Shown here one piece after another: positions 495 through 58,574 of a stretch of 64,000 bases of DNA (within the stretch, counting starts at the first letter, position 1; the number at the start of each line of letters is the position of its first letter). A model generated the notes under the pieces. That model made no database searches and had not been told where the DNA came from. It was given only the letters and a program-made list of their open reading frames with translations. Origin of the DNA: an uncultured Syntrophaceae bacterium. Its GTDB lineage: Bacteria; Desulfobacterota; Syntrophia; Syntrophales; UBA6807. The stretch lies in NCBI GenBank assembly GCA_964523565.1, contig CAZGAK010000001.1, positions 3,867 to 67,866 of the forward strand. The letters are read 5' to 3'. Position numbers and translations under genes: made by a program.

Positions 495-504
495 CATGAC
501 ATAC

Positions 505-709
505 AGATTCTTTATCCGTAACATGTACGGTTTTTGCGCAGATGTTGGCGACAGCTTATGCGAACAAGACAAAGAATTTTGGTTGCAGCTTTGCTGCTCT
601 GGAAACGTAGGGCAGGGCTTTAGCCCTGCATAAAGCCCAATGCAAGGCTAAAGCCTTGCCCTACATGCAAGAGGTCAACACCTCTTTGGCTGTAGCTTTA
701 CCGCCTTAG
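505..709 (+). repeat. Modular intergenic repeat family 1, alpha core (degenerate left arm, alpha core, right arm)
   Basis: AGATTCTTTAT...TTTTTGCGCAGATGTTGG, then the alpha core including a 58 nt palindrome (607-664), then ...GCTTTACCGCCTTAG. It ends 6 nt before the hemA ATG. Confidence 0.85.
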
Positions 710-2958: not shown

Positions 2959-3127
2959 AAGTGGTAAGTGAAAAGTATCTGAATGTCAAATTCCAAAGCT
3001 CAAATGCCAAATTAAATCTAAATTTAAAAAACCAAGAGTTATTTTTGTAATTTGGACTTAGGATTTTGGAATTATATTTAAGACAAGACAGGCTTAAATG
3101 TAACTTCTCGAAAAGTAGGGATAATAT

Positions 3128-3212
3128 CTCAAAAAACAGGAGCACTATAAAAGGCTCACGCCTAAATTCCTTATTTGGAGTTTACCCATAAGGGTTTTAC
3201 CCTGATTTATTG
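3128..3212 (+). repeat. Repeat family 2 (85 bp)
   Basis: CTCAAAAAACAGGAGCACTATAAAAGGCTCACGCCTAAATTCCTTATTTGGAGTTTACCCATAAGGGTTTTACCCTGATTTATTG. A second copy lies at 37694-37810. Confidence 0.8.
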
Positions 3213-3250
3213 AGAAGATACGCTTAAACTAATTAAGGTATCTATATTAA

Positions 3251-4858: not shown

Positions 4859-6037
4859 ATGATCGGAATTTCTAAATTATACTGTGGTGGCGTTGAACCT
4901 TCGGATGTCCTCCGTTACGGAGCGGAATCGGGGAAACTCCCCTCCCATCTCCTCCAGTTTTCAAAGGATAAACGTCCCGTCGTGGTATGGAACGCGACAA
5001 GGAGATGCAACTTACAATGCATACACTGCTATTCCAGTTCCCAGAATGTTAAATATGGTGATGAGTTAAATACGGATGAAGGTAAAAGATTGATATCCGA
5101 TCTTGCCTCGTTTGGCAGCCCTGTCATCCTGTTTTCCGGGGGAGAACCCCTGTTGAGAAGAGACCTGCCCGAACTTGTGCAATTTGCCGTAGATAAGGAA
5201 ATGCGGGCAGTCATATCGACAAACGGTACACTCATTACGAAGGAAAAGGCCGCAATTTTTAGTAAAATCGGTCTTTCCTACGTTGGTGTGAGTATTGATG
5301 GCATGAAAGAAACGCATGATCTGTTCAGGGGGGTCAATGGGGCATATGATGCTACTCTTCGAGGGATCAGGAACTGCCAGGATGCGGGGATCAAAGTAGG
5401 GGTGCGTTTTACCATAACGGGAAAAAATTATTCTGAAATCCCTGCAATTTTTGACTTCATTGAAAAAGAAAACATACCCCGGGCATGCTTCTATCATCTT
5501 GTTTATTCGGGCCGCGGTTCCGCCCTGATCGAAGAGGATTTATCCCACACTGAAACGCGGAAAGTTGTCGATGCAATAATGGACAGAACACGTGATCTCT
5601 TTGAAAGGGGTATATCCAAAGAAATACTTACTGTGGACAACCATGCCGATGGTCCCTATATTTATCTGCGCCTGCTTAAGGAAGATCCGAAGAGGGCGGA
5701 AGAGGTTTTGGAACTTCTCAAAATGAATGAGGGAAACAATTCAGGGAGAGGAATCGGTTGTGTAAGCTGGGATGGTGAGGTGTATGCAGACCAGTTCTGG
5801 AGAAACATCTCTTTTGGAAATGTCAGGAAACGCCCCTTCAGTAAAATCTGGCTGGACACCTCCAATGAATTGATGGCACAGTTAAAGGATAAAAAGTCTC
5901 ATGTGAAGGGAAGATGTGCCACATGCCGCTGGCTCGACGTATGCGGAGGAAATTTCCGGACAAGAGCCGAGGCCGTTGCCGGTGATATCTGGGCTCCTGA
6001 TCCCGCATGTTATCTGATGGATGGAGAAATAGGCTAA
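4859..6037 (+). CDS. ahbC: Radical SAM/SPASM enzyme of the NirJ family, probably AhbC (Fe-coproporphyrin III synthase, NirJ2 type)
   Basis: CNLQCIHCY radical SAM cluster motif and a C-terminal Cys-rich auxiliary-cluster region, CATCRWLDVCGGNFRTRA. The N-terminus ISKLYCGGVEPSDVLRYG is typical of the NirJ2 type, and the gene lies in the heme cluster. Assigning this gene rather than its paralog as AhbC relies on memory of family N-termini. Confidence 0.65.
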   Translation: MIGISKLYCGGVEPSDVLRYGAESGKLPSHLLQFSKDKRPVVVWNATRRCNLQCIHCYSSSQNVKYGDELNTDEGKRLISDLASFGSPVILFSGGEPLLRRDLPELVQFAVDKEMRAVISTNGTLITKEKAAIFSKIGLSYVGVSIDGMKETHDLFRGVNGAYDATLRGIRNCQDAGIKVGVRFTITGKNYSEIPAIFDFIEKENIPRACFYHLVYSGRGSALIEEDLSHTETRKVVDAIMDRTRDLFERGISKEILTVDNHADGPYIYLRLLKEDPKRAEEVLELLKMNEGNNSGRGIGCVSWDGEVYADQFWRNISFGNVRKRPFSKIWLDTSNELMAQLKDKKSHVKGRCATCRWLDVCGGNFRTRAEAVAGDIWAPDPACYLMDGEIG

Positions 6038-6088
6038 AGGTGAAAGGCTAAAGGCAAAAGGAAAAAAAGAGGAGGGGGAAAGTAAACC

Positions 6089-14335: not shown

Positions 14336-14469
14336 TTAGATTCTTTATTCTCAACAACCGAGTCCTTTGAGCAGATATTGAAAGGCGAAAGGCTGAAGGC
14401 TAAGGGCTGAAGGAAAAACCTTTAGCCCTTGGTCCTCATTGCTCAGTCCTTGCGGCTTTGCCGCATTAG
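14336..14469 (+). repeat. Modular repeat family 1, beta core
   Basis: TTAGATTCTTTATTCTCAACAAC..., a heptad-built beta core, then GCGGCTTTGCCGCATTAG. It is nearly identical to the reverse complement of 25251-25398. Confidence 0.9.
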
Positions 14470-14956: not shown

Positions 14957-15139
14957 AATTTATTCACATTTATCATTATTTTTTTGTTTGTAGCGAAAAA
15001 GGCTATCATTCGCTTATTGGGGTGTCAATGAAAATTGAAAGGCGAAAAGGCAAGATCTTAAGCCTGCAGGGCCCGAGAGAAAAACAGGGGGAGGGTTGAA
15101 ACTGAATAAATTATCCTGGATAAAAATATTTGAAGGCTT

Positions 15140-21841: not shown

Positions 21842-22044
21842 TTAGAGTCTTTATTCACAACAACTGCGTTTTTTGCGCAGATGCTGGCGGAAAATAAATC
21901 CGAAATTCGAATATCGAAATACGAAACAAATTCGAATATCAAATAACAAAATTTCGAAACAGTTTTGGACATTCGAGTTTAGGGTTTTGATATTGTTTCG
22001 AATTTCGTACTTCGGATTTCGAATTTGCAGCTTTGCTGCCTTAG
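21842..22044 (+). repeat. Modular repeat family 1, gamma core (flip orientation)
   Basis: TTAGAGTCTTTATTCACAACAACTGCGTTTTTTGCGCAGATG, then an AT-rich palindromic gamma core, then GCAGCTTTGCTGCCTTAG. Confidence 0.9.
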
Positions 22045-23399: not shown

Positions 23400-25254
23400 T
23401 AAATTAGCCCAATATGACCCTGGTGAATTCAGGAGGAAGTTTAGGGTATTGATATGGTTGGTACTCTTTGCATTTGTTTTTCTCGTTGCCAAAATGTGGT
23501 ATCTCCAGGTAATAAAGGGAGAGGAATTAATTCAGCGATCCAAGAACAACAGGATTCGCCTTCAGGAAACAAAACCATTAAGAGGCTTGATTCTGGATAC
23601 GCGCGGGAAAGTCCTGGTAGATAATCAACCGTCCTTTGACATTTCAATCATTCCAGAAGTAGCAAAAAATGTGGAAGGTGTTATCAAAAGGCTGGCCTGT
23701 GAATATGGCGAGAATGAAATAGAACTCTATAACAATTTTTCATCATCAAAGCACAGGAAACCTTTCGTTCCGATTAAGCTTGAAAAAAATATTGGAAGAG
23801 ATAAGTTAGCCGTAGTTGAGACAAACTCTTTGGATTTGCCCGGCGTCGTCGTTGATGTTGTGCCTGTGAGAAAGTATATTTATGGTGAGATGATGGCTCA
23901 TATCCTTGGTTATGTGAGTGAGATTAGTACTGTTGACCTGGGCAGGGATTTGTACGGTGAATACAAGCCCGGTGATATTGTCGGTAAATCAGGCATTGAA
24001 AAATGGGTAGACAGATATTTAAAGGGTGAAAGCGGGGGAGAACAGATAGAGGTAAATGTTAACGGTAGAAAATTGAATGTCCTGGGGAAGGTTGAATCCG
24101 TTCCCGGATACAATGTCATGCTAACCATCGATGCCGATCTTCAAAGGATTTGCTGGGATGCCTTTCAGGAAAAGGCGGGCACCGTGATCATGATGGACCC
24201 TCGAGACGGTTCTATACTGGCCATGATAAATAAACCTTCTTTTGATCCAAATCTTTTTAACCGGGGCATATCAGGCGAGGATTGGAACAAACTTTTAAAT
24301 AACCCACTCAGTCCCATGCAGAATAAGGCTATTTCCGGGCAATACCCCCCCGGTTCCACATATAAATTGATCGTGGCTGCTGCCGCTCTTGAAGAGGGCC
24401 TGGTAACCCCTCACACAAGGTATCTTTGTGATGGTACGTATAAGATGGGTAACCGGACATTCAGGTGTTGGAAAAAGTATGGCCATGGTAATGTCAGTTT
24501 ACACCGTGCTATTGTAGAGTCCTGTGACGTATATTTTTACAATCTGGGAGCACAAATCGGCGTTGATAAATTGGCACAGTATGCACGGAAGTTTGGGTTA
24601 GGATCGAAAGCGGGTGTGGAGCTTTCCGGAGAGAAAAGCGGCTTGATACCAACAAAGGAGTGGAAACTGAAAAGGTTGAATAAACACTGGCAGATGGGCG
24701 AGACGATTTCATTATCTATAGGTCAGGGGTTTATTTTGTTGACTCCTTTACAACTTATTAGAACCTACTGTGCCCTGGCGAATGATGGTGTTCTATATAA
24801 ACCGAGACTTATAAAAAGAATTATGACGGAACAGGGGCAGATCATTAAGGAATTCCCTCCTGAAAAGGAGCCTCTTATACCTGTCAGTAAAAAAAATATT
24901 GAGATATTAAACCTTGCATTATGGGGAGCTGTAAACGAAGATCATGGTACGGGACTGGCTGTGAGAAGAAGGGGGAAGGATGTCTGTGGGAAGACAGGTA
25001 CTGCGCAAGTCATAGCAATGCCTCAGGATAAGAAAGATAGTGATATAGAAAACATTCCGTATAAATATAGAGATCACGCCCTTTTCGTTTGTTTCGCGCC
25101 GTATAAAGATCCTGAAGTAGCAGTAGTAGTGATTGTAGAACATGGAGGTCATGGGGGATCTGCTGCCGCTCCCATTTCGAGAAAGATTATTGACGGGTAT
25201 TTTGAAATCAAAGAGAGGAGAAACAGCCTCCAGTCTCGTGAAGTACAAGGCTAA
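23383..25254 (+). CDS. mrdA: Penicillin-binding protein 2 (elongasome transpeptidase)
   Basis: Contains STYK (GSTYKLI), SCD-type (SxN-equivalent) and KTGTAQ motifs. I prefer ATG 23383 (MTEKNSKL...) to the track start at 23326. The stop codon TAA at 25252-25254 lies inside a repeat arm. Confidence 0.9.
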   Translation: MTEKNSKLAQYDPGEFRRKFRVLIWLVLFAFVFLVAKMWYLQVIKGEELIQRSKNNRIRLQETKPLRGLILDTRGKVLVDNQPSFDISIIPEVAKNVEGVIKRLACEYGENEIELYNNFSSSKHRKPFVPIKLEKNIGRDKLAVVETNSLDLPGVVVDVVPVRKYIYGEMMAHILGYVSEISTVDLGRDLYGEYKPGDIVGKSGIEKWVDRYLKGESGGEQIEVNVNGRKLNVLGKVESVPGYNVMLTIDADLQRICWDAFQEKAGTVIMMDPRDGSILAMINKPSFDPNLFNRGISGEDWNKLLNNPLSPMQNKAISGQYPPGSTYKLIVAAAALEEGLVTPHTRYLCDGTYKMGNRTFRCWKKYGHGNVSLHRAIVESCDVYFYNLGAQIGVDKLAQYARKFGLGSKAGVELSGEKSGLIPTKEWKLKRLNKHWQMGETISLSIGQGFILLTPLQLIRTYCALANDGVLYKPRLIKRIMTEQGQIIKEFPPEKEPLIPVSKKNIEILNLALWGAVNEDHGTGLAVRRRGKDVCGKTGTAQVIAMPQDKKDSDIENIPYKYRDHALFVCFAPYKDPEVAVVVIVEHGGHGGSAAAPISRKIIDGYFEIKERRNSLQSREVQG

Positions 25255-25398
25255 GGCGGCAAAGCCGCAAGGGCTGAGCAATGAGCAATGAGCAATGAGG
25301 ACCAAGGGCTAAAGGTTTTTCCTTCAGCCCTTAGCCTTCAGCCTTTCGCCTTTCAATATCTGCGCAAAGAACGCGGTTGTTGAGAATAGAGATTCTAA
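25251..25398 (-). repeat. Modular repeat family 1, beta core, inverted orientation
   Basis: CTAAGGCGGCAAAGCCGC...CTGCGCAAAGAACGCGGTTGTTGAGAATAGAGATTCTAA. It contains the mrdA stop codon. Confidence 0.9.
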
Positions 25399-25434
25399 TA
25401 AGTACCTTAATTGTAAAGTTCTTGCAAAAATGGC

Positions 25435-25573
25435 AAAAGAATTTGGCTGTAACTTTGCAGACTTGGAAACGTAGGGCAGGGCTTTAGCCCTGCATAAAGC
25501 CCAATGCAAGGCTAAAGCCTTGCCCTACATGCAAGAGGTCAGCACCTCTTTGGTTACGGATTTGCCGCCTTAG
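25435..25573 (+). repeat. Modular repeat family 1, alpha core, left arm missing
   Basis: Carries the alpha core with a 58 nt palindrome (25471-25528) identical to that at 607-664, plus the right arm ...GGATTTGCCGCCTTAG. It ends 10 nt before the rodA ATG. Confidence 0.85.
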
Positions 25574-31512: not shown

Positions 31513-31529
31513 TTAAATTCTTAATTCTT

Positions 31530-31682
31530 AAATTTGATGGTTTCGTAAAAAGTCAAAAACTCGCTAATATGTCATTCCCGCGAAAGCGGGAATCCAGTAA
31601 TTACACGCAGTTATAGATTCCCGATCAGATCGGGAATGACAAAACGGCAAAAACTCCGACTTTTTACGAACTTGTCAAATTT
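31530..31682 (+). mobile_element. 153 bp MITE-like structured repeat (family 3), complete copy with terminal inverted repeats
   Basis: The TIRs are AAATTTGATGGTTTCGTAAAAAGTC... and ...GACTTTTTACGAACTTGTCAAATTT. Internal hairpins are ATTCCCGC-GAAA-GCGGGAAT and ATTCCCGAT-CAG-ATCGGGAAT. A second, truncated copy lies at 49010-49122. Confidence 0.8.
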
Positions 31683-31781
31683 GAGTTTTTAATTAAAAAT
31701 TGAGAACATAAAATTCAAAATCCATTACCGATGGATTTTATAAATATTTGATTATAAAAAAGTACAATAAATACTCTTTAA

Positions 31782-33203
<1,422 letters not shown>

Positions 33204-33223
33204 CGAAGCCGGAGGAGTGTTAA

Positions 33224-33634
33224 ATGGCTGACGAATTGATGGTGGAAATTGCCACACCTGAAAAAATGGTGTTCAGTGATAAAGTTGAAGAGGTGACGAT
33301 TCCAGGGGTTGATGGTGAGTTTGGTGTGCTGTTCGGTCATGCTCCCCTTTTGACTTTAGTTAATATTGGTGAGTTGAATTATACCAGGGATAATAAAAAG
33401 ACACATTATGCCATTGGAGCAGGATATGTGGAGGTAACCTATCAGAAAGTAACATTACTTCTTGATAGCGCTGAGAGATCTGATGAGATTAATAAGGAGA
33501 GCGCAAGAAGAGAAAAAGATGCGGCAGAGGCGAAGCTCTCAAAGATGAACAAGGAAGAAGATAAGGGTTATAAGGAGGCGAAAGACAATCTGAGTCTGGC
33601 AGAGGCGAGGCTCAAGGTTGCAGAGAAGACATAG
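33224..33634 (+). CDS. atpC: F-type ATP synthase subunit epsilon
   Basis: 136 aa. An N-terminal beta-sandwich (VEIATPEKMVFSDKVEEVTIPGVDGEFGVL) plus a C-terminal helical hairpin. Confidence 0.9.
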   Translation: MADELMVEIATPEKMVFSDKVEEVTIPGVDGEFGVLFGHAPLLTLVNIGELNYTRDNKKTHYAIGAGYVEVTYQKVTLLLDSAERSDEINKESARREKDAAEAKLSKMNKEEDKGYKEAKDNLSLAEARLKVAEKT

Positions 33635-33685
33635 CGGATTTTCCTCAGGAAAGAAAGACTCTGTTTTGGAAAAAATCGAATGATT

Positions 33686-33722
33686 CAAGCCAGGGAGGTT
33701 TCACTTTCCTGGCTTGTTTTTT
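33686..33722 (+). terminator. Rho-independent terminator after atpC
   Basis: A 9 bp stem, CAAGCCAGG (33686-33694) with CCTGGCTTG (33708-33716), followed by TTTTTT. Confidence 0.75.
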
Positions 33723-33737
33723 AGTTGTATAGACATT

Positions 33738-33931
33738 ATATTCTTTATTCTCGACAACTGCGTTTTTTGCGCAGATGTTGGCGGAAAATAAATCCGAAGT
33801 ACGAAATTCGAAACAATATCAAAATCTTAAACTCGAATGTCCAAAACTGTTTCGAAAATTTGTTATTTGACTTCGACGTGAGCTCAGTCGAACGATATTC
33901 GGATTTCGGATTTGCGGCTTTGCCGCTTTAG
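33738..33931 (+). repeat. Modular repeat family 1, gamma core (flop orientation)
   Basis: The left arm ATTCTTTATTCTCGACAACTGCGTTTTTTGCGCAGATG and right arm GCGGCTTTGCCGCTTTAG are in the same orientation as 21842-22044. However, the 79 nt central segment 33790-33868 is the reverse complement of 21941-22019. Confidence 0.9.
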
Positions 33932-33941
33932 GAGTTTAATC

Positions 33942-35420
33942 ATGGTGCGAGCAAAGGGGTTCTTGTCAGGTCTTTTTATAGTTGCTTTGTTTTGTACTCT
34001 ATTTTTGGATCCAGGTGTTGCTTACTGTGCCGCCGAAGAGGCCTCACATCATGGAGGTAATATAGGAGAAATATTATCGGCCTGGACAGTGATTCCTTTT
34101 GTCGGTATTTTACTGTCCATAGCTTTGCTTCCTTTGCTTATGCCTCACTTCTGGCATAATCACTTCGGTAAGATTTCGGCATTCTGGGCGTTGCTGTTTG
34201 CGATTCCGTTTCTCTATGTTTATCATTATGTGGCATTATACGAAATTCTGCACATCTATCTAATTGATTATTTCCCGTTTATCATTCTTCTCTGGGGCCT
34301 CTTTACCGTTGCGGGAGGAATCGTGGTCGGTGGTTCAATAAAGGGGACCCCGGTTGTCAACACGATTATGTTATTGATAGGAACGATATTGGCCTCCTGG
34401 GTAGGAACGACGGGAGCAGCCATGGTTATGATACGTCCTCTTTTAAGGGCAAACAAGAACAGGGTAAACAAAGTACATGTCGTGTGCTTTTTTATATTTC
34501 TTGTGGCCAATATCGGGGGTTCGCTCACACCGCTTGGCGATCCGCCGCTATTTCTTGGATTTCTCCATAATGTTCCGTTTTTCTGGGTTACGACAGCTAT
34601 CCTCCCACATATGTTGTTAACGTCGTTGATACTGTTGGTTCTGTTTTTTGCCGTTGACACATTTTACTATAATAAAGAGAAAGATGAGTTGAAAAAGATA
34701 GGGCCAATGGAACAAGTTCCCATCAGGATTCAGGGTGTGCATAATTTCATTTTTCTGGCGGGTATTGTCGTCCTCGTTCTCATAAGCGGTTATTGGAAAG
34801 CGGGACATTTCAGTGTAATGGGTATTCACATGACGTATCAGAATCTCCTGCGGGATGTTGGAATTATCATTATGGGAACACTCTCTCTCCTGTTAACCTC
34901 CAAGAGTCTTCGGGAAGAAAACGAATTCAGCTGGTTTCCGATAATGGAAGTGGCCAAACTTTTTGCCGGCATTTTTATGACGATTATTCCTTGCCTGGCA
35001 ATCCTGAAAGCTGGAAGTAACGGTGCCATGGCCGGTCTTGTAGCTGTCGTGAAAGAGCCGTTTCATTATTTCTGGGTAGCCGGCACACTCTCCTCTTTCC
35101 TTGATAATGCGCCTACCTATCTCACCTTCTTTAACCTTGCTCTGGGCAAACTCGGCTTAACAGAGGCAATGGTTCCGGCTGCGCTGGCGGCAAAAGCGGC
35201 GACGGCAAATCCTGTGTTTATCAGTTATCTGAAAGCAATATCAGCAGGTGCGGTCTTTATGGGCGCCAATACCTATATCGGCAATGCGCCGAATTTCATG
35301 GTTAAATCTATTGCTGAAGAAGCGGGAATTAATATGCCGAGTTTTTTCGGTTATATGTTTAAATATTCAATTCCTATTCTTATTCCCATATTTGTTGTTG
35401 TAACTTTTGTATTCTTTTAG
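33942..35420 (+). CDS. Ion transporter of the ArsB/NhaD permease superfamily (putative Na+/H+ antiporter)
   Basis: Polytopic membrane protein of about 490 aa resembling NhaD/citrate-transporter-type permeases. I prefer ATG 33942, 10 nt after AGGAG; the track start at 33912 lies inside a repeat. The stop codon TAG at 35418-35420 lies in a repeat arm. Confidence 0.55.
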   Translation: MVRAKGFLSGLFIVALFCTLFLDPGVAYCAAEEASHHGGNIGEILSAWTVIPFVGILLSIALLPLLMPHFWHNHFGKISAFWALLFAIPFLYVYHYVALYEILHIYLIDYFPFIILLWGLFTVAGGIVVGGSIKGTPVVNTIMLLIGTILASWVGTTGAAMVMIRPLLRANKNRVNKVHVVCFFIFLVANIGGSLTPLGDPPLFLGFLHNVPFFWVTTAILPHMLLTSLILLVLFFAVDTFYYNKEKDELKKIGPMEQVPIRIQGVHNFIFLAGIVVLVLISGYWKAGHFSVMGIHMTYQNLLRDVGIIIMGTLSLLLTSKSLREENEFSWFPIMEVAKLFAGIFMTIIPCLAILKAGSNGAMAGLVAVVKEPFHYFWVAGTLSSFLDNAPTYLTFFNLALGKLGLTEAMVPAALAAKAATANPVFISYLKAISAGAVFMGANTYIGNAPNFMVKSIAEEAGINMPSFFGYMFKYSIPILIPIFVVVTFVFF

Positions 35421-35624
35421 ATTCTTTATTCTCAACAACTGCGTTTTTTGCGCAGATGTTGGTATCAGCTTATGCGAATAAGACAAAGAATTCTGGTTGC
35501 ACCTTTGCTGCCTTGGAAACGTAGGGCAGGGCTTTAGCCCTGCGTAAAGCCCAATGCAAGGCTAAAGCCTTGCCCTACATGCAAGAGGCCAACACCTCTT
35601 TGGTTGCGGCTTTGCCGCCTCAGG
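35417..35624 (+). repeat. Modular repeat family 1, alpha core, full length
   Basis: TTAGATTCTTTATTCTCAACAACTGCGTTTTTTGCGCAGATG, then the alpha core (palindrome 35521-35578, one substitution), then GCGGCTTTGCCGCCTCAG. Confidence 0.9.
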
Positions 35625-36266: not shown

Positions 36267-36427
36267 CTAAGGCGGCAAAGCCGCAAGGACTGAGCAACGA
36301 GCAATGAGGACTGAGAACTAAAGGCTAAAGGTTTTTCCTTGATCCTTTGTCCTTGTACCTTGCACCTTTTCACTGCTGACACTAAAATCTGCGCAAAAAA
36401 TGCAGTTGTTGAGAATAAAGAATCTAA
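36267..36427 (-). repeat. Modular repeat family 1, delta core, inverted orientation, full length
   Basis: CTAAGGCGGCAAAGCCGC..., then a heptad-built delta core, then ...CTGCGCAAAAAATGCAGTTGTTGAGAATAAAGAATCTAA. It contains the stop codon of the speD-speE fusion. Confidence 0.9.
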
Positions 36428-37512
36428 TCCTTTAACCTTGAGATATGTGCCGAAGCAAATATCCACGGCGTGCAGAAAGACTGGATATTCGTTTTTGAGA
36501 ATTTAACATTAATGAAAGCCCGGCTGAGGATTTTTTCTGACATAATAAGTGTATCCTTGTCATATTCGGAACAGCACTGAGACGTTATCATGCCATTGGG
36601 ATTGAGGCAGTCTTTAATTTTTGCGAAGAGATCTTCCAGGTACAGCTCGCGATCCATATTGATAAACGTTTCAGGATGCATGGTTAAATCATAGATAATT
36701 GCATCAAAACGCCTGTCAGTATTTAAGAAATTATTTACATCATCGTTTATAATCTCTACCCGCGGATCATCGAACGCATCATGACAGATACACTGTAGAT
36801 ATTTCCTGGAAGCGTTTATAACTTCTTCGTCTATATCGATGAGTGTAACCTTGCCGGGGTTGTATTTCAAAAGTTCATAAAGGACCCCCCCGTCTCCACC
36901 GCCCAGGATTGCTACATTTTCTAAAGGATTTTTTGCTTCAACAAGAGGTGATACCATGCTCTGGTTGTAAAGATGAGCATCATATTCGGCAATCTGCAGA
37001 TCATTATTCAAAAACAGCAGCTTACCGAAAATTTCATTTTCTATGATGTCTATCTGCTGATATTTTGACATCTTGCTGAAAATTGCTTTTTCGATGTGGT
37101 ACCGTATGTCGAATCCGACCGTATCGGAAACGTCGGTTATCCAATTGGTTTCTGACACTTCGATTGGGTTTCCCCGGATAATTTCGGCTGTCCTCGTTGT
37201 AGTCGGTTTAAATTTATCCTTCAGATAATGTAACAGATTATTCGTTACCTCCTTGTCGGGAGAACAGGTATATATATCCACAGAAGCGTGACGCGCTTCG
37301 GGGTATGTATGGATGGCAACATGGGATTCACTGATGACTGCTATGGATGTGACACCGATGGGATCGTAGCAATGACTGTTGATAGCTACAAGAGATAGTC
37401 CGCATTCTCTGATACCATTACGCAGAATGTTTTCGATGGCCTCTTTATCGTTTAAAATATCTCTGGAACAGTTGTGAAATTCCGCTACGATTTGCATCCC
37501 GATTGGCTTCAT
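36424..37512 (-). CDS. speD-speE: Fusion of S-adenosylmethionine decarboxylase proenzyme and an aminopropyltransferase (spermidine synthase-like)
   Basis: The N-terminal roughly 115 aa is class-1 AdoMetDC with the self-processing site context VISESHVAIHTYPE. The C-terminal roughly 240 aa has the spermidine synthase fold motifs YQQIDIIE, ILGGGDGGVLYELLKY, IDIDEEVI and DPRVEIINDD. Confidence 0.8.
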   Translation of the reverse strand: MKPIGMQIVAEFHNCSRDILNDKEAIENILRNGIRECGLSLVAINSHCYDPIGVTSIAVISESHVAIHTYPEARHASVDIYTCSPDKEVTNNLLHYLKDKFKPTTTRTAEIIRGNPIEVSETNWITDVSDTVGFDIRYHIEKAIFSKMSKYQQIDIIENEIFGKLLFLNNDLQIAEYDAHLYNQSMVSPLVEAKNPLENVAILGGGDGGVLYELLKYNPGKVTLIDIDEEVINASRKYLQCICHDAFDDPRVEIINDDVNNFLNTDRRFDAIIYDLTMHPETFINMDRELYLEDLFAKIKDCLNPNGMITSQCCSEYDKDTLIMSEKILSRAFINVKFSKTNIQSFCTPWIFASAHISRLKD

Positions 37513-37525
37513 GGCAAAATAAACT

Positions 37526-37658
37526 TTCTTTATAAAGGTACAAGGTACAAGGACAAAGGATCAAGGACAAAGGACAAAGGATCAAGGAAAAACCTTTAGC
37601 CTTTAGTTCTCAGTCCTCATTGCTCGTTGCTCAGCCCTTTGCGGCTTTGCCGCATTAG
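37526..37658 (+). repeat. Modular repeat family 1, delta core, left arm reduced to TTCTTTAT
   Basis: AGGTACA AGGTACA AGGACAA AGGATCA AGGACAA AGGACAA AGGATCA AGG..., ending GCGGCTTTGCCGCATTAG. Confidence 0.85.
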
Positions 37659-37693
37659 TCCCTTAAGCGAGAAATTAAATTTTCTTGTAACAG

Positions 37694-37810
37694 CTCAAAA
37701 AACAGGGGCATCATAAAAGGCTCACGCCTGAATTCCTTATTTGGAGTTTACCCGTAAGGGTTATACACTTATTTGGAGTTTACCCGTAAGGGTTTTACCG
37801 TGATTTATTG
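37694..37810 (+). repeat. Repeat family 2 (117 bp) with an internal 32 bp tandem duplication
   Basis: Same sequence as 3128-3212 with a few substitutions. CTTATTTGGAGTTTACCCGTAAGGGTT(A/T)TAC(A/C) is present twice in tandem. Confidence 0.8.
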
Positions 37811-37826
37811 GGCTGATTCATTTTCT

Positions 37827-37945
37827 TTCTTTATAGAGGTACAAGGTACAAGGACAAAGGATCAAGGAAAAACCTTCAGCCTTTAGCCTTTAGTTCTCAG
37901 TCCTCATTGCTCATTGCTCAGCCCTTTGCGGCTTTGCCGCCTCAG
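37827..37945 (+). repeat. Modular repeat family 1, delta core, left arm reduced to TTCTTTAT
   Basis: Same as 37526-37658 but with three fewer AGGNNCA heptads and one extra CCTTTAG unit. It ends GCGGCTTTGCCGCCTCAG. Confidence 0.85.
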
Positions 37946-37990: not shown

Positions 37991-38044
37991 AGAGATTATA
38001 GAAATAATACATTGATTCAGGCGGCCTGCAAAGGTCTCAAGCTG

Positions 38045-39342: not shown

Positions 39343-40245
39343 GTGAAGGGACTGCCGGGACCTTGGATAGGCGCTATGGAAGCAACAATATTCACCGGAT
39401 GGGTGTATGACTTTTTAAAGCCGCACGCCATTGTCCTGAAGGTGGCTCATCCTGCGATGCTGAAGGCCATAACAGCCGCCAAGAAAAAGAACGATCGTGC
39501 CGATGCCGAGAAAATAGCCGATCTGTTACGGGTGAATCTTCTGCCTGAATGCCACATGCTTTCAGAAGAGATTCGTGAACTGCGACGGATATTACGGTAT
39601 CGCAACCATATTGTTCGGACGGCAGTTAAGATGCAGAACAAGATGTCGGGTCTGCTCATGGAAGTTGGTGTCAGCTACAGCAAGAAACGCTTGCACGGCA
39701 AGAAATACTTTCGTGAACTTCTAGAACGAGTCGATGAAATTCCCCCTTCCGTCAAGGAGCTTCTTCAGCTGAGTCGTTCAAGCTACGAGATGTTTCGCTC
39801 TTTCCAGAAGCGGCTTGTTGCAACGCTTCGCACCGACAGCCTGATACGTGATCGGGTACATCGTCTCATGACCATCCCCGGTGTAGGAGAGATAACGGCA
39901 CTGACCTGGGTATTGGAGATCGGCGATCCCGAACTATTATCATCCATTCGTAAGGCAATCAGCTACTGCGGGCTGTGCAGCGCACAAAAAGAATCGGCGG
40001 GCAAGGAGCAGCGAGGCCCCATCTCCAAGAAACGGAACAAACACCTGCAAACCATACTCATTGAAGCCGCAAAGCTTGCACCATACTGGAACGAGCAACT
40101 GGCCATTGTACATGAGCGGGAATCGAAGAAAGGAAACAAAAACAGGGCAACCCTTGCCGTTGCGAGAAAGCTTGTGGCTTACATGCTGGCTGTTGACAGG
40201 AAAGGGAGCGATTTCAAGCTTCCCTCAGAAACGCAAGCAGCCTGA
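39343..40245 (+). pseudogene. IS110-family (DEDD) transposase, 5'-truncated remnant
   Basis: Contains the second half of the DEDD domain (GAMEATIFTGW, KKNDRADAEKIADLL) and the Transposase_20 region (IPGVGEITALTWVLEIGD, SAGKEQRGPISKKRNKHL). The N-terminal GIDxxK block is absent. The frame stays open upstream to 39205 without a start or the missing motif. Confidence 0.7.
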
Positions 40246-41623: not shown

Positions 41624-41945
41624 AAATGCTATTCCGATTACTGCTTTCATTTTGTAAACGTATCCGACAGTTTTTTGCGATTTTTATGAAAATTTGCGGG
41701 GCATAAAAAGATAACTGCTTATATTAATTGACAGAACAGCCCAAAAAAGGCCGTAACAAAAAGTGTCGGCATGCTTTACAGCTTTCGGCTTGTTTTACAA
41801 ATCGAACATTAAAACTCTCATTGTTCTTTAAAAAAAAAGAAAAAAAGGGAAAAAAGGATTGAAGGATTGGAGGCTAAATCATAAATAAGTCGAAAGTGGA
41901 CCTCTTTCCCCCATTCTTTTCCAGTAGGGCCCGTTCCCCGAACGA

Positions 41946-43360
41946 AGTAATTCGGGGACGTTGTTGACTATGTTGACTTTCTATTTTTCCGATCTACTGA
42001 TAATTTTTGAGATGGCAGATGTTGATACTCCCAGTTGACGTGCTATCTCTGCAAATGGAATTCCATACTGTTCCGCTAAACTGATCGCTAACTTCGACCT
42101 TATCTTTGATATTGATCCCCTGCGGCTTCCGTATTTAAGTTCTTTAATATTAATGTTTTCCTGCTTGCATGCCTTTTCTATGAATTGCTCCACCTTTTTC
42201 AGGCGGTCTTGTCCCAAAAATTGATGTCTCACCTTTTGATCAACCTCTTGTAACAGATAATCGACGAATTCTCCGCCACCCAATATCCGCTCATCAGAAC
42301 TCGCACGCATTCCTGAAAATCGCATAGTCTTGACTTGAGTCCAACCGCCCATAGATCGAATCAAGCCTCCGCCAACTAACTCCGGCCGTCTGCCTTGATT
42401 AATTCCTTCTTGAATAAATTCCCGGTAGCAACTTCTGGCCACTCCTTCTGTTTTGCCAAACCACCTTAATATGTAATCACGATCTTGCCAATCGTTTGTT
42501 CTTTTACCCATTACAGTCGCATGCCCACACCAGCGGTAGATGTCCAGTTCCGATAAACTCTTCACAAGTTTTGCCCGCAGTGGATTTAAATGAATATAGC
42601 GGACTAACTCCTTAAAATAAACATCCTCTTCACAAATTATCGATTTAGAGTAATTCGGAGTAATTCGGGGACGTTGTTGACTATGTTGACTTTCTATTTT
42701 TCCGATCTACTGATAATTTTTGAGATGGCAGATGTTGATACTCCCAGTTGACGTGCTATCTCTGCAAATGGAATTCCATACTGTTCCGCTAAACTGATCG
42801 CTAACTTCGACCTTATCTTTGATATTGATCCCCTGCGGCTTCCGTATTTAAGTTCTTTAATATTAATGTTTTCCTGCTTGCATGCCTTTTCTATGAATTG
42901 CTCCACCTTTTTCAGGCGGTCTTGTCCCAAAAATTGATGTCTCACCTTTTGATCAACCTCTTGTAACAGATAATCGACGAATTCTCCGCCACCCAATATC
43001 CGCTCATCAGAACTCGCACGCATTCCTGAAAATCGCATAGTCTTGACTTGAGTCCAACCGCCCATAGATCGAATCAAGCCTCCGCCAACTAACTCCGGCC
43101 GTCTGCCTTGATTAATTCCTTCTTGAATAAATTCCCGGTAGCAACTTCTGGCCACTCCTTCTGTTTTGCCAAACCACCTTAATATGTAATCACGATCTTG
43201 CCAATCGTTTGTTCTTTTACCCATTACAGTCGCATGCCCACACCAGCGGTAGATGTCCAGTTCCGATAAACTCTTCACAAGTTTTGCCCGCAGTGGATTT
43301 AAATGAATATAGCGGACTAACTCCTTAAAATAAACATCCTCTTCACAAATTATCGATTTA
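41946..43360. repeat. Perfect tandem duplication, 2 x 702 bp joined by an 11 bp junction (period 713 bp)
   Basis: By my reading, 41946-42647 is identical base for base to 42659-43360. The junction GAGTAATTCGG (42648-42658) partly re-copies the first 10 nt of the unit. Confidence 0.85.
41981..42565 (-). pseudogene. Duplicated 3' fragment of the HUH/Y1 transposase-like gene, lacking the catalytic N-terminus
   Basis: The 194 aa translation is identical to the C-terminal 194 aa of the 42694-43665 product. There is no HUH motif. Confidence 0.75.
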
Positions 43361-43665
43361 TAACGATTTTGAAACAAATGACCGTGGCGACGATGGCGCC
43401 GGTTATAGGATAACGCATATCCGGTGAGTAGCCTCCTCATATAGAAGGATAGACCAGAAGAAGAGCTTTTCAACAATATGTGAGCATGATTAGACATCAA
43501 CGACCAGGCATAAATTGCCGTACCGGTATCAGAGGCGATTTGTCCCATTCGGGAGACAAAATCTTCTCGATCAGTTGTATCATCGACGATCCTGCGTTTT
43601 TCAATCCCCCGCACGATCACATGATGCAGCGTTCCAGGGGCATCAAGCCGGGCTTGTCGTGGCAT
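42694..43665 (-). CDS. HUH (Y1) transposase-like protein (IS200/RAYT-related) with a C-terminal DnaA-domain-IV-like HTH
   Basis: N-terminus GTLHHVIVRGIEKR and HUH motif SNHAHILL, with a catalytic Tyr context VRYIHLNPLRA. The C-terminus RSKLAISLAEQYGIPFAEIARQLGVSTSAISKI is a helix-turn-helix. Confidence 0.7.
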   Translation of the reverse strand: MPRQARLDAPGTLHHVIVRGIEKRRIVDDTTDREDFVSRMGQIASDTGTAIYAWSLMSNHAHILLKSSSSGLSFYMRRLLTGYALSYNRRHRRHGHLFQNRYKSIICEEDVYFKELVRYIHLNPLRAKLVKSLSELDIYRWCGHATVMGKRTNDWQDRDYILRWFGKTEGVARSCYREFIQEGINQGRRPELVGGGLIRSMGGWTQVKTMRFSGMRASSDERILGGGEFVDYLLQEVDQKVRHQFLGQDRLKKVEQFIEKACKQENINIKELKYGSRRGSISKIRSKLAISLAEQYGIPFAEIARQLGVSTSAISKIISRSEK

Positions 43666-43940
43666 TCGTTACCTTCTCATTAAACGATTGACCGAATGCT
43701 AACATAATTATTCAAGCTTGTCAACTACGTCCCTTTTATTCCCCCTTTTATTCCCGGTGGGGCTATAAGTTAAAAGAAGCAGACGATTATGTGAGGCTGC
43801 ATTATTCGCAGGTAAGTAAGATAGATTCAAGGGGGGGCAAAAGACAAGACCTTACCCCCTTTATCCTTCCGACGCAGAAAAAGATACATCTTGACATTCG
43901 GTCCATATTTGGTATTGTATGCGGACCGGGGGTGGTGAAA

Positions 43941-44542: not shown

Positions 44543-44700
44543 AAGCAATTGGCGGAAAGCTTGAGAAAGCTTGGGGTCAAATCTTTATTCTTTAATATTC
44601 TCACCGCGAATCCTTACTATAAATGCCAAATCCCCGTAAACTCAATGATCAAGATTTGATCCCAGGACCCCCCCCCAGGGCTTGGGGGATGTGCTAATGG

Positions 44701-45291: not shown

Positions 45292-45491
45292 GAAAATATA
45301 ATAACCCAAAATGATAATATCGTCAAGCGTTATTAGTCAAAATTGGGAACGGGTTCACATTTAATGATCGCTGATCCAATTTCCACACACGGACAAATGA
45401 TACTGAAACAAGTTCAGCCTTCGGCGTGAGCTCAATCGAACGGTTCGGCTGCAAATTCCCCGTGCTGAGTTAGTAAAACCGAAACCTCTTT

Positions 45492-48956: not shown

Positions 48957-49009
48957 TATTCTAAAGAAAGACGAGGGGTCTTCACTTTTGACAGTTTTAC
49001 TTTCTTTTC

Positions 49010-49122
49010 AAATTTGACGGTATCGTAAAAAGTCAAAAATACGCGAACTGGTCATTCCCGCGAAAGCGGGAATCCAGTGATTACACGTAGTTATGGATTC
49101 CCGATCAGGTCGGGAATGACAA
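49010..49122 (+). mobile_element. MITE-like repeat family 3, 3'-truncated copy
   Basis: Shares the left TIR and both internal hairpins with 31530-31682. It diverges after GGGAATGACAAA, so the right TIR is missing. Confidence 0.75.
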
Positions 49123-49500
49123 AGAAGAAGGGGAATAATGTAATGGGGTCGGACCAAGATAATCGCCTGTAATCCATAAAATTGTCCCTGAAAACAGGGC
49201 CAATTTTACCCTTAGAGGCACCATTTCAGCATCAAAAAGGGCGTCCTAAGAAATTCTATGCGGAAAAAAGATCGCGCCTGAAAGATGCTCTCACACCTTG
49301 AACCTTATACCTCATACCTGTTTTTTTACAGTGCCCAGCGCCTATTGTTGTTCACCATATAAACTGCGGATTACGTAAAAGACCTGTAAGATAGTTTTGG
49401 ATTTACTGAAAAGGCAAAATCAATAGCACTATCCATTTACACTCATCAGTGAAATGAGTTATAAACACTACAGTTTGATGTCTTCTACCATAGGGAATTT

Positions 49501-57074: not shown

Positions 57075-57551
57075 CTAATCCCGGGCAGGTTTTTCTTTCA
57101 GAGCCCTTCCTATCTTTTTTTCTATGTGGCGATGACGTTCTACCGGATCTTCCCGGCGGCCCAGACGCCCGAAACGTGTAGCGGGCGCAACAATATAAAT
57201 ACCCTGGGAAGGTTTTCCCGTGTCGGCACATAGCGCTTCAAGATAAGCAATCGCCTGATCGAGGACCTCCTGATCCTTGATGATGGTAAACAGGGTTTTG
57301 TTGTGGGGCATTCCGCCGCTGGTAAGAGCCCGGAAACCTGCGAAGATAGGAATATGGTGGCTGATCAACTGAAGGGAGTCGGTGCTCTCTATTACCGTGG
57401 CACCGGTGATTCCGATATCCAGCCAGCCCGTGATGAGTTCATCCAGGAGTTCTTCATTATTAATCACGGTAATTAGAATATACACGTATTGCTCTCTTCT
57501 TGAGACCTTTGCATAACGTCCCCTTTTGCCCAATTTCTGCGTCATGCTCAA
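57075..57551 (-). CDS. Hypothetical protein with a PII-like (double beta-alpha-beta) pattern
   Basis: YVYILITVINNEELLDELITGWLDIGITGATVIES and TLFTIIKDQEVLDQAIAYLE resemble PII-like fold repeats. The assignment is weak. Confidence 0.3.
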   Translation of the reverse strand: MSMTQKLGKRGRYAKVSRREQYVYILITVINNEELLDELITGWLDIGITGATVIESTDSLQLISHHIPIFAGFRALTSGGMPHNKTLFTIIKDQEVLDQAIAYLEALCADTGKPSQGIYIVAPATRFGRLGRREDPVERHRHIEKKIGRALKEKPARD

Positions 57552-57670
57552 ATTTTAATCCTCGAAATACTCAATGTATTCCTGTGGTTAAAATTTTCAC
57601 CTTCCTTGAACTTGAACAAAATTGAACATTCTGCAAAGGTCTCTTCTTAAAGTAAGTTGCTTATTAACGA

Positions 57671-58141: not shown

Positions 58142-58410
58142 AATACGTCAACTCTCTTATAGTAAACAGGAAATTACTTCTCTATTAATTTTATTATAAA
58201 AAAATGTCAAGTACGAACAAAGGGAAGCAAACAGCAAAATGGGAGTCAACTATCTTCCGGGACTACACGGTTATCTGTAAAAAGGCCTTCAAATAAGGAT
58301 GCAAGATTCGTCAACCTTTACACGCTTTACATTGACAGGTAATTATACTATATTAACTTTTTTAAAATTAATGATAAGTTTTTCCAAAAGGCCTTGTAAT
58401 ATATTCAACA

Positions 58411-58574
58411 ATAACTAGTGTCATGGCAAGCTTGCAATGACGCACAAGCCTTCGTCATTGCGAGGCCGAAGGCCGTGGCAATCTCTTGGATTATGCCAAG
58501 TTAGCTCCCAGTAGCAGGAGATTGCTTCGCTTCGCTCGCAATGAAACTCGAGACTTGACACGACACTAGTGTTA
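58411..58574. mobile_element. 164 bp MITE-like structured repeat (family 4) with roughly 20 bp terminal inverted repeats
   Basis: Left end ATAACTAGTGTCATGGCAAG; right end CTTGACACGACACTAGTGTTAT. Internally, TCATTGCGAGGCCGAAGGCCGTGGCAATCTC is paired with GAGATTGCTTCGCTTCGCTCGCAATGA. Confidence 0.75.

Follow-up and report, generated by a model that had tools for sequence, protein, structure and literature searches.

Elements that are mobilized by Y1 enzymes lack terminal inverted repeats (TIRs), carry subterminal hairpins, and insert 3' of a specific site of 4 to 5 nt without duplicating the target (PMC4810608, PMC5027513). Protein-less forms of such elements are named PATEs and REPs (PMC4810608, PMC5027513), and PATE-like elements that are mobilized in trans have been described (PMC10055086). 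In this study, we characterized a family of protein-less intergenic elements, bounded by the tetranucleotide TTAG, in a 64,000-nt stretch of DNA from an uncultured Syntrophaceae bacterium (GenBank assembly GCA_964523565.1, contig CAZGAK010000001.1, positions 3,867 to 67,866; hereafter the window). A first-pass annotation of the window had listed ten loci that share a left and a right arm around four interchangeable cores, namely, alpha, beta, gamma, and delta. We found that the family is real and more intricate than was first described, with defined boundaries, no TIRs, a specificity for TTAG, insertions that differ between relatives, and cores that turn over, and that its mechanism is only partly resolved.

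Arms and cores of the family

A degenerate left-arm pattern with 20 specified bases matched the window seven times (at 509, 14342, 21848, 33742, and 35423, and at 25392 and 36421 on the minus strand) and was never matched in 100 shuffles of the window. The right-arm pattern TTGCGGCTTTGCCGCNTNAG matched nine element ends plus one chance-like site, with 0.05 matches expected in the window. Profile hidden Markov models (HMMs) for each arm, trained on copies outside the window only, recovered, at the positions given by the first-pass annotation, just seven left arms (E = 4e-10 to 1e-18) along with 10 right arms (E = 0.02 to 8e-7); there were no other significant matches. All ten annotated loci have the right arm, but the full left arm that had also been ascribed to each is present in only seven, being absent from d2, d3, and a2 (Table 1). 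The elements are all intergenic and occur about once per 6 kb; several lie inside housekeeping operons (between ccsB and hemA, mreB and mreC, and mrdA and rodA), and one follows atpC. Two decayed copies had also been proposed. The arm at 44590–44620 found no support (nhmmer E > 10), and the supposed gamma core at 45400–45470 is instead a separate copy of a 25-nt mini-element.

Left-arm scans of one genome per species gave 39 stretches, and scans of metagenomes gave 87 further stretches (loci are cited below by L numbers). The genome matches were nearly all in metagenome-assembled genomes (MAGs) labelled Syntrophales, Syntrophaceae, or Syntrophobacterales, and many left-arm matches lay at contig ends; one match in Bartonella was dismissed as due to chance. 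The loci were chosen by the left arm alone and comprised about 1.05 Mb with 149 left arms, 102 of which had a right arm 92 to 374 nt downstream on the same strand, compared with about 3 expected from the density of right arms, so that the two arms co-occur far beyond chance, contrary to the outcome that the first-pass annotation had named as refuting the family. One locus from a Syntrophaceae genome (L013) was 95% identical to positions 31766–35248 of the window. The arms are nearly identical across at least nine species-level genomes, although the MreC proteins of these genomes are only 60 to 90% identical. Neither arm was found in the viral contigs scanned. The first-pass annotation had recognized no named family, and the searches agreed with it: Rfam gave nothing in the window at gathering thresholds and only spurious miRNA-hairpin matches at E ≤ 5, and the literature searched held no description of this repeat family and none for Syntrophales. 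The family is lineage specific and apparently undescribed.

A full element has the layout TTAG/AG-TCTTTATTCNCAA, an 11-bp hairpin, GGYRYCAG, the core, TTT, GCGGC-TTT-GCCGC, and N-TTAG, where the slash marks the left boundary and the last TTAG ends the element. It lies directly 3' of a TTAG-like tetranucleotide of the host, starts with AGTCTTTATTC, and ends with GCCGCNTTAG; TTAG is thus present at both boundaries, as first noted. The left hairpin, CAACAACTGCG-TTTTTTG-CGCAGATGTTG, is real and longer than the CTGCG/CGCAG stem originally given, with 10 of 11 positions paired and one A·A mismatch. About 18 nt separate it from the boundary, the right hairpin stands 1 nt before the terminal TTAG, and both are on the same strand. 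The left end TTAGAGTCTTTATTC and the reverse complement of the right end CTAAGGCGGCAAAGC have no similarity, confirming that neither end is an inverted copy of the other and that the elements are not TIR-bearing MITEs (transposable elements of the miniature inverted-repeat type). The two subterminal hairpins are conserved in 149 left and 148 right copies, with a few compensated variants; in the right hairpin, these are GCAGC/GCTGC (4 copies), GTGG/CCAC, CCGGC…CCGG, and CCAG…CTGG, each followed by GTTAG.

Between the arms, the core is always an imperfect palindrome of 0 to about 250 nt, the two halves of which are tandem repeats of about 7 nt (for example, AAGGNNN, CGAAATN, GGGATCA, CAGAAKT, and GAAATTN). 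AAGGNNN arrays occur in many cores, and the heptamer sequence is wholly different between core types. The smallest elements measure 42 to 100 nt and include a 42-nt fusion of both arms (L053) and three elements of 92 to 100 nt (L058, L123, and L050). The modular structure that had been proposed was borne out, but four unrelated cores proved to be an oversimplification. Beta and delta form a single class of heptamer-repeat hairpins that are 73 to 80% complementary across copies, and alpha is a composite. Alpha module 1 stands alone in L050, with a proper right arm and TTAG at its end. Alpha module 2 starts at AAACGTAGGG (603, 25467, and 35517), has its own right arm, and contains two inverted GTAG-tagged REPs, GTAGGGCAGGGCTTTAGCCCTGC and GTAGGGCAAGGCTTTAGCCTTGC, of which there are three pairs in the window; the REP unit GTAGGGCARGGCTTTAGCCYTGC is present in six copies that form three inverted pairs. 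Compared with g2, element g1 carries the middle 81 nt of its gamma core in the opposite direction (96% complementary), and an inverted gamma core was found in 2 of 23 distinct copies. TTAG is five-fold denser in cores than in the window (9.9 versus 1.8 per kb) and is unequally distributed between the strands: the top strand of the cores has 99 TTAG versus 38 CTAA, and for the 81 TTAG of the 3' halves there are only 36 mirror-image CTAA in the 5' halves, these counts not being phylogenetically independent. Half-arrays of the AAGGCTN type, without arms or a complementary half, were also observed at 6025–6075, just upstream of a gene at 6089, and at 15034–15070; heptamer arrays are therefore not confined to the elements.

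Insertion sites and core turnover

The first-pass annotation had suggested that orthologous regions of relatives be compared for empty sites. We obtained syntenic loci via MreC homologues, and each of the three empty sites examined had a single TTAG-like tetranucleotide. Between mreB and mreC, L040 is empty and reads GATGA-TTAA-AATATGCC, whereas the window is filled and reads GAGTGA-TTAG-(g1)-TTAG-AATATACC. Upstream of rodA, the site in L040, deduced by removing an unrelated TIR MITE, is TAAG/GTAATAT, and the window has TAAG-(a2…CCTTAG)-GTAATAT. The third site is empty in L072 and filled in L031 and L102. Insertion differences were found between genomes with flanks that are 95 to 100% identical. 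In the more distant relatives L042 and L043, mrdA and rodA either are joined by a 26-nt junction or overlap, and no arms were found anywhere in the syntenic 12 kb.

The flanks of the copies give the logo W-TTAG/AG…NTTAG/G, with nothing conserved farther out. In the left-flanking tetranucleotide, T, T, A, and G were present in 43, 44, 47, and 41 of 51 copies, respectively. Among 85 distinct insertions, 42 have TTAG on both sides; in such copies, a 4-bp duplication and an element-borne TTAG look alike. In 24 distinct insertions the left tetranucleotide is a variant, and a single one of them has the same variant on the right. Element a2, with TAAG on the left and TTAG on the right, likewise favours insertion without target duplication. 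From the empty and filled pairs, the flank logo, and the unmatched variants, we conclude that one TTAG-like site exists before insertion and that the element probably brings its terminal TTAG with it. The upstream gene often has its stop codon in the left TTAG, and in the reverse orientation CTAA supplies a TAA, as in mrdA. Many copies end 10 to 15 nt before a start codon, where the junction TTAG/GAG gives a Shine–Dalgarno-like AGGAG. We read this siting as selection for harmless positions in compact operons. The orientation relative to the flanking genes is mixed (15 co-directional and 10 opposite), and 8 of the 10 elements in the window are on the G-rich strand. Taken together, the family is very probably mobile now or was so recently.

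Turnover of the cores was seen by comparing orthologous sites whose flanks are 92 to 100% identical and whose arms are kept. At one such site, with flanks 97 to 98% identical, L027 has a 105-nt element with a delta core and L062 a 228-nt element with a gamma core; whole-core replacements were also found between L069 and L105 and between L092/L119 and L100. Element b2 and its L040 ortholog have common variants of the left-arm subtype (AACC and GTTCTTTG) and different cores. Where the window has g1, L104 (flanks 98–100% identical) has a complete delta element with an ATTAG end followed by the 3' half of a gamma core, and the junction is a TTAG in the gamma loop. This structure fits a TTAG-directed event, and tandem insertion followed by deletion is a possible alternative. 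For core exchange in general, the best explanation is either recombination in the arms or a new insertion at the TTAG already used. Heptamer copy number also differs between orthologs, as in L016 versus L124 and in L034 versus L132, which differ by a deletion of three heptamers. Slippage best explains the heptamer periodicity, and among the long simple repeats of bacteria, heptamers are the commonest (reviewed in PMC4679880).

The 25-nt unit GACTTCGRCGTGAGCTCAGTCGAAC has TTCGAC/GTCGAA hairpin potential and was found in at least 38 distinct contexts, including two positions inside gamma cores, the loop of a TIR MITE, stand-alone sites, and its own copies, in which it is nested. Its target in these loci appears to lie after GA in the loops of hairpins. 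A 25- to 27-nt insert of this mini-element is present in L132 and absent from the orthologous site in L034, and the unit was also seen in L059, L072, L106, L064, L082, L117, L041, L122, and L133. Heptamer hairpins of the CTGCCTG/CAGACAG type occupy the loop of the left-arm hairpin in L041 (4180–4296 and 9990–10100), and in L023 the loop of an AAGGAWC heptamer hairpin contains an entire element, at a AAGGATTAG site. Insertions therefore nest both ways. The features of the window are collected in Table 1.

Table 1. Elements of the TTAG family and the stand-alone mini-element in the window
Element	Position	Strand	Context and structure
a1, composite	503–709	+	Between ccsB and hemA
a1 module 1	503–602	+	Degenerate left arm 503–549; internal right-arm-like end TTGCAGCTTTGCTGCTCTGG at 583–602
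a1 module 2	603–709	+	GTAG-tagged REP doublet 607–629/642–664; hairpin AGAGGTCAACACCTCT; decayed right arm 690–709
b1	14336–14469	+	Left arm, AAGGCTN heptamer hairpin core, right arm ending ATTAG; antisense to its neighbours, between two minus-strand genes; orthologous copies in L094 and L136
g1	21842–22044	+	Between mreB and mreC; gamma core, central 81 nt inverted versus g2; right arm a compensated variant, GCAGC-TTT-GCTGC
b2	25251–25398	-	Directly after mrdA; terminal CTAA provides the TAA stop codon of mrdA
a2	25403–25573	+	10 nt upstream of the rodA start; inserted after TAAG; a different leader, TACCTTAATTGTAAAGTTCTTGCAAAAATGGCAAAAGAATTTGG, then alpha module 2 with REP doublet 25471–25528, then decayed right arm
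g2	33736–33931	+	After the atpC terminator, 14 nt upstream of the ATG of the next gene; gamma core with nested 25-nt mini-element 33869–33893; ortholog in L013 95% identical, with core indels
a3, composite, module 1 + module 2	35417–35623	+	REP doublet 35521–35578; left TTAG includes the TAG stop codon of the upstream gene
d1	36267–36427	-	Delta heptamer-hairpin core; between convergent genes; left-end TTAG (CTAA on the plus strand) overlaps the stop codon of a spermidine synthase-like gene, 36424–37512
d2	37526–37658	+	Left arm cut to TTCTTTAT, fused straight to the core (internal deletion common to d2 and d3); delta core with 7 heptamers on the 5' side; right arm intact
d3	37827–37945	+	Left-arm deletion as in d2; shorter delta core; right arm ending CTCAG
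25-nt mini-element, stand-alone (CCTTCGGCGTGAGCTCAATCGAAC)	45418–45441	+	Mistaken earlier for a decayed gamma core

Candidate mechanisms

Our tentative preference, held with slightly less than even confidence, is that the family consists of lineage-specific, non-autonomous elements of the IS200/IS605-PATE or REP kind that are mobilized in trans by strand-specific, TTAG-directed cleavage. What favours trans-mobilization is the absence of TIRs, the two same-strand subterminal hairpins, insertion 3' of a constant tetranucleotide, the element-borne terminal motif, the lack of demonstrable duplication, the precise presence/absence alleles, and the top-strand motif bias, a set of traits by which Y1/HUH-mobilized elements of the IS605 superfamily are defined in the literature (PMC4810608, PMC5027513, PMC10055086). 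An HUH-type enzyme in particular gains from the empty sites with a single TTAG, the right TTAG that appears to belong to the element, and the strand asymmetry of TTAG in the cores, and we infer a single-stranded intermediate handled by a Y1/HUH enzyme. Such an enzyme, encoded elsewhere in the genome, would recognize the subterminal hairpins of a single strand, cleave after both the flanking and the terminal TTAG, and insert the element 3' of a further TTAG with no duplication of the target. The core would be free to vary as long as it remains a hairpin: its length would change by slippage of units of about 7 nt, it could take nested insertions such as the 25-nt mini-element and the REP doublet module, and it could be exchanged by recombination in the conserved arms or by excision and re-insertion at the same TTAG. 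Insertions would be kept where the host tolerates them, between a stop codon and the next ribosome-binding site, and the element ends may aid this tolerance, as TTAG carries TAG and its complement CTAA carries TAA.

Several observations weigh against this mechanism. No transposase or coding region was found between left and right arm for any of the 149 left arms, so the master copy anticipated by the first-pass annotation, in which the arms flank a transposase, did not emerge from the search; in four cases the arms are 1 to 2.8 kb apart, and each of these consists of two elements separated by host genes. No Y1-like ORF was found near the arms in about 0.95 Mb of arm-bearing loci from fragmented MAGs, and all-against-all clustering of the neighbouring ORFs revealed no protein family recurring beside the arms, only orthologous housekeeping clusters. 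In about 1 Mb sampled around the arms, no autonomous or TnpB-bearing insertion sequence (IS) with the same ends was found. The hairpins of the two ends are unlike (CTGCG-T6G-CGCAG versus GCGGC-TTT-GCCGC), a feature not typical of IS200/IS605; IS608-type elements have similar hairpins at their two ends, both bound by a single TnpA. The 4 nt 5' of the hairpins also differ, being ACAA (TTCT for the extended stem) on the left and YTTT/NNTT on the right. Neither is obviously complementary to TTAG, and copies ending in TCAG have no matching change 5' of the hairpins, both being weak tests because the pairing rules are partly non-canonical. The hairpins show limited covariation, their variation being mostly one-sided decay. 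The strand bias is weak, the GC skew being positive on the element top strand in 31 of the 49 cases, and gene direction confounds it. The terminal TTAG, if it is a good target, would itself receive insertions, so that tandems with a right end, TTAG, and a left end are expected, but a search for head-to-tail tandems sharing one TTAG found none. Finally, gene conversion between paralogues could give the core swaps without any transposase. Given no IS with shared ends, unlike hairpins, no evident guide, and a weak strand bias, membership in IS200/IS605 is not established.

The window has only one Y1 gene, at 42694–43665 on the minus strand, which encodes a protein of 323 amino acid residues with an IS200-like Y1 domain and a C-terminal helix-turn-helix (HTH). 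The protein matched Pfam Y1_Tnp and scored 62 bits against NCBIfam REP_Tyr_transpos, below the cutoff of 80, and is RAYT-like; no solved structure was matched by sequence. When it was compared by phmmer with all 3106 ORFs of at least 80 amino acid residues in the sequence collected, the only matches were the gene itself and its partial duplicate. The gene is not linked to the arms, a further point against the favoured mechanism, and is bounded by its own 15-bp inverted repeats GGGACGTNGTTGAC, with GGGACGTTGTTGAC and GTCAACTACGTCCC at 42668–42681 and 43720–43733. These flanks are neither arms nor a GTAG REP, and the 15-bp repeats occur nowhere else in the window. The gene was found in one genomic context in 12 metagenome contigs, beside Phd/ParE and HigB-like toxin–antitoxin genes, and its family has more than 8000 homologues, far beyond Syntrophales. 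We rejected it as the mobilizing enzyme on account of the unrelated flanks, the single context, and the huge, broad family. RAYT genes flanked by TIRs instead of REPs are known as the 'TIRYT' arrangement (PMC3733652), which the Y1-HTH gene matches; nothing ties this gene to the arms. A 300-nt repeat near this gene (41943–42242 and 42656–42955, 100% identical and 713 nt apart) carries the partial Y1-HTH duplicate as an ORF at 41981–42565; the duplication is absent from other assemblies of the locus (L044–L048) and is either recent or an assembly artefact. An IS110-family (RNA-guided) transposase gene at 39343–40245 on the plus strand (169 bits, NCBIfam) appears to be N-terminally truncated or to have a mis-called start, and its flanks showed no similarity to the arms.

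Some of the same observations could be accommodated by a REP/BIME-like system, in which extragenic palindromes retained by the host for mRNA stability, termination, or nucleoid-protein binding are spread by a single-copy, domesticated RAYT-type enzyme, possibly the Y1-HTH protein, and joined into mosaic arrays as in BIMEs. On the other strand, the right arm does have the REP layout of a tetranucleotide followed by a GC-rich hairpin (CTAA-S-GCGGCAAAGCCGC), alpha module 2 holds a true GTAG-tagged REP doublet, the elements lie within operons as BIMEs do, and a RAYT-like gene in one context across 12 contigs is at hand, with TIR-flanked RAYT genes as a precedent. This explanation is nonetheless rather unlikely. 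The flanks of the Y1 gene are unrelated repeats confined to that site in the window, its score is below the RAYT cutoff, and its family extends well beyond Syntrophales, whereas the arms are lineage restricted. Moreover, the family-wide tag is CTAA, not GTAG or CGTC (PMC3733652), the long, asymmetric, conserved left arm is not a REP feature, and the same operons of relatives lack elements, making any host role dispensable. We also consider it very unlikely that the elements are MITEs of a DDE transposon, for example IS5- or IS630-like, that duplicates a TTAG or TA target. Such an origin would explain the TTAG-like tetranucleotides on both sides of most copies and the single one in empty sites, and in L019 a left arm begins 16 nt after the end of an IS630-like ORF. 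However, the elements have no TIRs at all, no DDE gene recurs near the arms, a2 stands between TAAG and TTAG at a site that is TAAG when empty, variant tetranucleotides are almost never common to both sides, and the strand asymmetry of TTAG in the cores points the other way, as do the true TIR MITEs of the window (31527–31685 and 57502–57643), which look quite different.

A structured RNA family, acting as 5' leaders, small RNAs, or protein sponges with AAGG heptamers as protein-binding sites, is just as improbable as a DDE origin, if not slightly more so. The strong predicted structures, the AAGGNNN arrays, and the Shine–Dalgarno-like junctions shortly before start codons would suit such a role, but folding is equal on both strands (mean −57.6 versus −56.5 kcal/mol, the plus strand being stabler in 16 of 30), the elements face either way relative to genes, Rfam offers no match, the elements contain no consensus promoter or terminator, copies in housekeeping operons come and go among close relatives, and the heptamers differ completely between core types; the elements are probably not an RNA, at least not by itself. 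A sigma-54 or sigma-70 promoter in the left arm was considered by eye and dropped, the spacing being wrong for sigma-54, as was an integron attC-like reading of TTAGGN, since the boundary repeats are direct and not inverted and thus unlike attC R''/R'. The failure to find a transposase, the decay that makes up much of the arm variation, and the ability of slippage and conversion to account for core changes could also mean that the elements are relics of an old burst with no present mobilization machinery, diversified by slippage, hairpin-templated repair, and gene conversion. This is quite unlikely in view of the insertion differences between genomes with nearly identical flanks and of the near identity of the arms in species whose MreC proteins have diverged, which indicates recent or continuing spread or selection on the ends. 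In a rather improbable alternative, the arms, the heptamer cores, and the self-nesting 25-nt mini-element would all be products of one process not linked to a transposase, by which small hairpins could be inserted, extended, and exchanged strand-specifically at TTAG motifs and hairpin loops. The conserved arms would then be fixed docking sites for swapped hairpin 'cassettes' rather than parts of a conventional IS derivative, and the whole would be a deltaproteobacterial counterpart of the unexplained SDR/STRR phenomenon of cyanobacteria.

Neighbouring repeats and comparison with known systems

Other repeats were observed in the window. One TIR MITE family, with ends TCGTAAAAAGTC…GACTTTTTACGA and internal GTCATTCCCGCGAAAGCGGGAATCC and GATTCCCGATCAGATCGGGAATGAC hairpins, has copies at 31527–31685 and 49008–49130 and also in L040 (1960–2120) and in L028, where the copy lies inside a TTAG element. 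A second, GAGACCTTTGCA…TGCAAAGGTCTC, is present at 57502–57643, as a solo end at 38027–38038, and at about 6750–6880 of L040, where it has an apparent AAGGT duplication and occupies the site upstream of rodA that is taken by a2 in the window. Two copies of a repeat of about 90 to 130 nt (3122–3219 and 37688–37817, 89% identical) contain the unit CTTATTTGGAGTTTACCCGTAAGGGTTTTAC, which is single at 3170 and forms a tandem pair at 37736 and 37768; one lies upstream of a gene at 3251 and the other between d2 and d3, and the repeat may belong to a further repeat family or represent a regulatory region common to both sites. A multi-genome repeat with GTCATTGCGAGCGAAGCGAAGCAATCTCC-like palindromes was found at about 58400–58560 and in L019 (about 1440–1487).

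The elements have practical consequences for annotation. They can mislead gene callers into false start codons and ORFs, and the ORF list takes a TTG within the g2 right arm as the start of the gene at 33912–35420, the true start likely being an ATG about 14 nt after the element. They also break metagenome assemblies, as seen from the many matches at contig ends, and change the stop codons and the ribosome-binding regions in housekeeping operons (mreBCD-mrdA-rodA, atp, and hemA), so that masking is advisable for annotators. Their presence or absence and their core type could serve as high-resolution strain markers. If the favoured trans-mobilization is correct, uncultivated syntrophic Deltaproteobacteria (Syntrophales) carry a dense, active, protein-less element family whose target rule, 3' of TTAG, is clean to an unusual degree and whose core changes faster than the neighbouring genes diverge. 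The family would then be a natural system for studying the movement of hairpin-ended elements in trans, the growth of palindromes in 7-nt steps, and the nesting of 25-nt units, the last being a question posed mainly in cyanobacteria so far.

BOX/BIME-type mosaics and derivatives of hairpin-ended HUH (IS200/IS605) elements, the precedents named by the first-pass annotation, are still the closest analogues. Like PATEs and other IS200/IS605 derivatives, the elements have no TIRs, bear same-strand subterminal hairpins at both ends, and lie 3' of a specific tetranucleotide with a terminal motif of their own and no evident duplication; they also have internal palindromes, a high copy number, and no coding capacity. 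The left hairpin is separated from the left boundary by about 18 nt, a spacing similar to that in IS608. By the nomenclature of PMC10055086, the TAM would be the flanking TTAG and the TEM the terminal TTAG. Unlike PATEs, they are accompanied by no autonomous IS with the same ends and no linked TnpA or TnpB that could be found, their end hairpins differ, no guide tetranucleotide is recognizable, the flanking and terminal motifs are the same, and the heptamer-repeat core is hypervariable. With REP, BIME, and REPIN sequences they have in common that they are abundant extragenic palindromes, often in operons, with a mosaic structure and a conserved tetranucleotide beside a GC-rich hairpin. The likeness to REPINs comprises a GTAG-tagged REP doublet, in alpha module 2 only, and a RAYT-like gene in the window; by contrast with REP/REPIN-RAYT systems, the family-wide tag is TTAG/CTAA, the left arm is long and asymmetric, and nothing connects the RAYT-like gene with the arms.

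BOX elements of Streptococcus pneumoniae (boxA-boxB(n)-boxC) are intergenic, form stem-loops, and have no known transposase of their own. As in BOX, conserved and differing terminal modules surround a variable number of internal modules; unlike BOX, for which no TTAG specificity is known, the present family has an unrelated sequence and host phylum, and many unrelated palindromic cores of 7-nt units take the place of one repeated 45-nt module. Elhai et al. reportedly described, in 2008, cyanobacterial STRRs as tandem heptamer arrays in intergenic DNA and SDRs as units of 21 to 27 nt with hairpin potential that insert into heptamer arrays, minitransposons, and their own copies. The 25-nt mini-element behaves like these SDRs, whereas the phylum and the sequences are different and the heptamers here form two complementary hairpin halves within conserved arms. 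Multicopy sequences with heptanucleotide repeats in Geobacter metallireducens (PMC2700814) and TAACTGA repeats in Beggiatoaceae (PMC4679880) are likewise lineage-specific intergenic families, with 4 to 6 tandem heptamers, some in inverted pairs and often close upstream of start codons, and with a mechanism that is not known; no conserved terminal arms or TTAG boundaries have been reported for them, and they have been interpreted as regulator-binding or translational elements, not as insertions. Unusual traits of the Syntrophales family are an identical flanking and terminal TTAG, unlike end hairpins, hypervariable cores of heptamer palindromes with swaps at orthologous sites, and a co-resident 25-nt mini-element that nests in itself.

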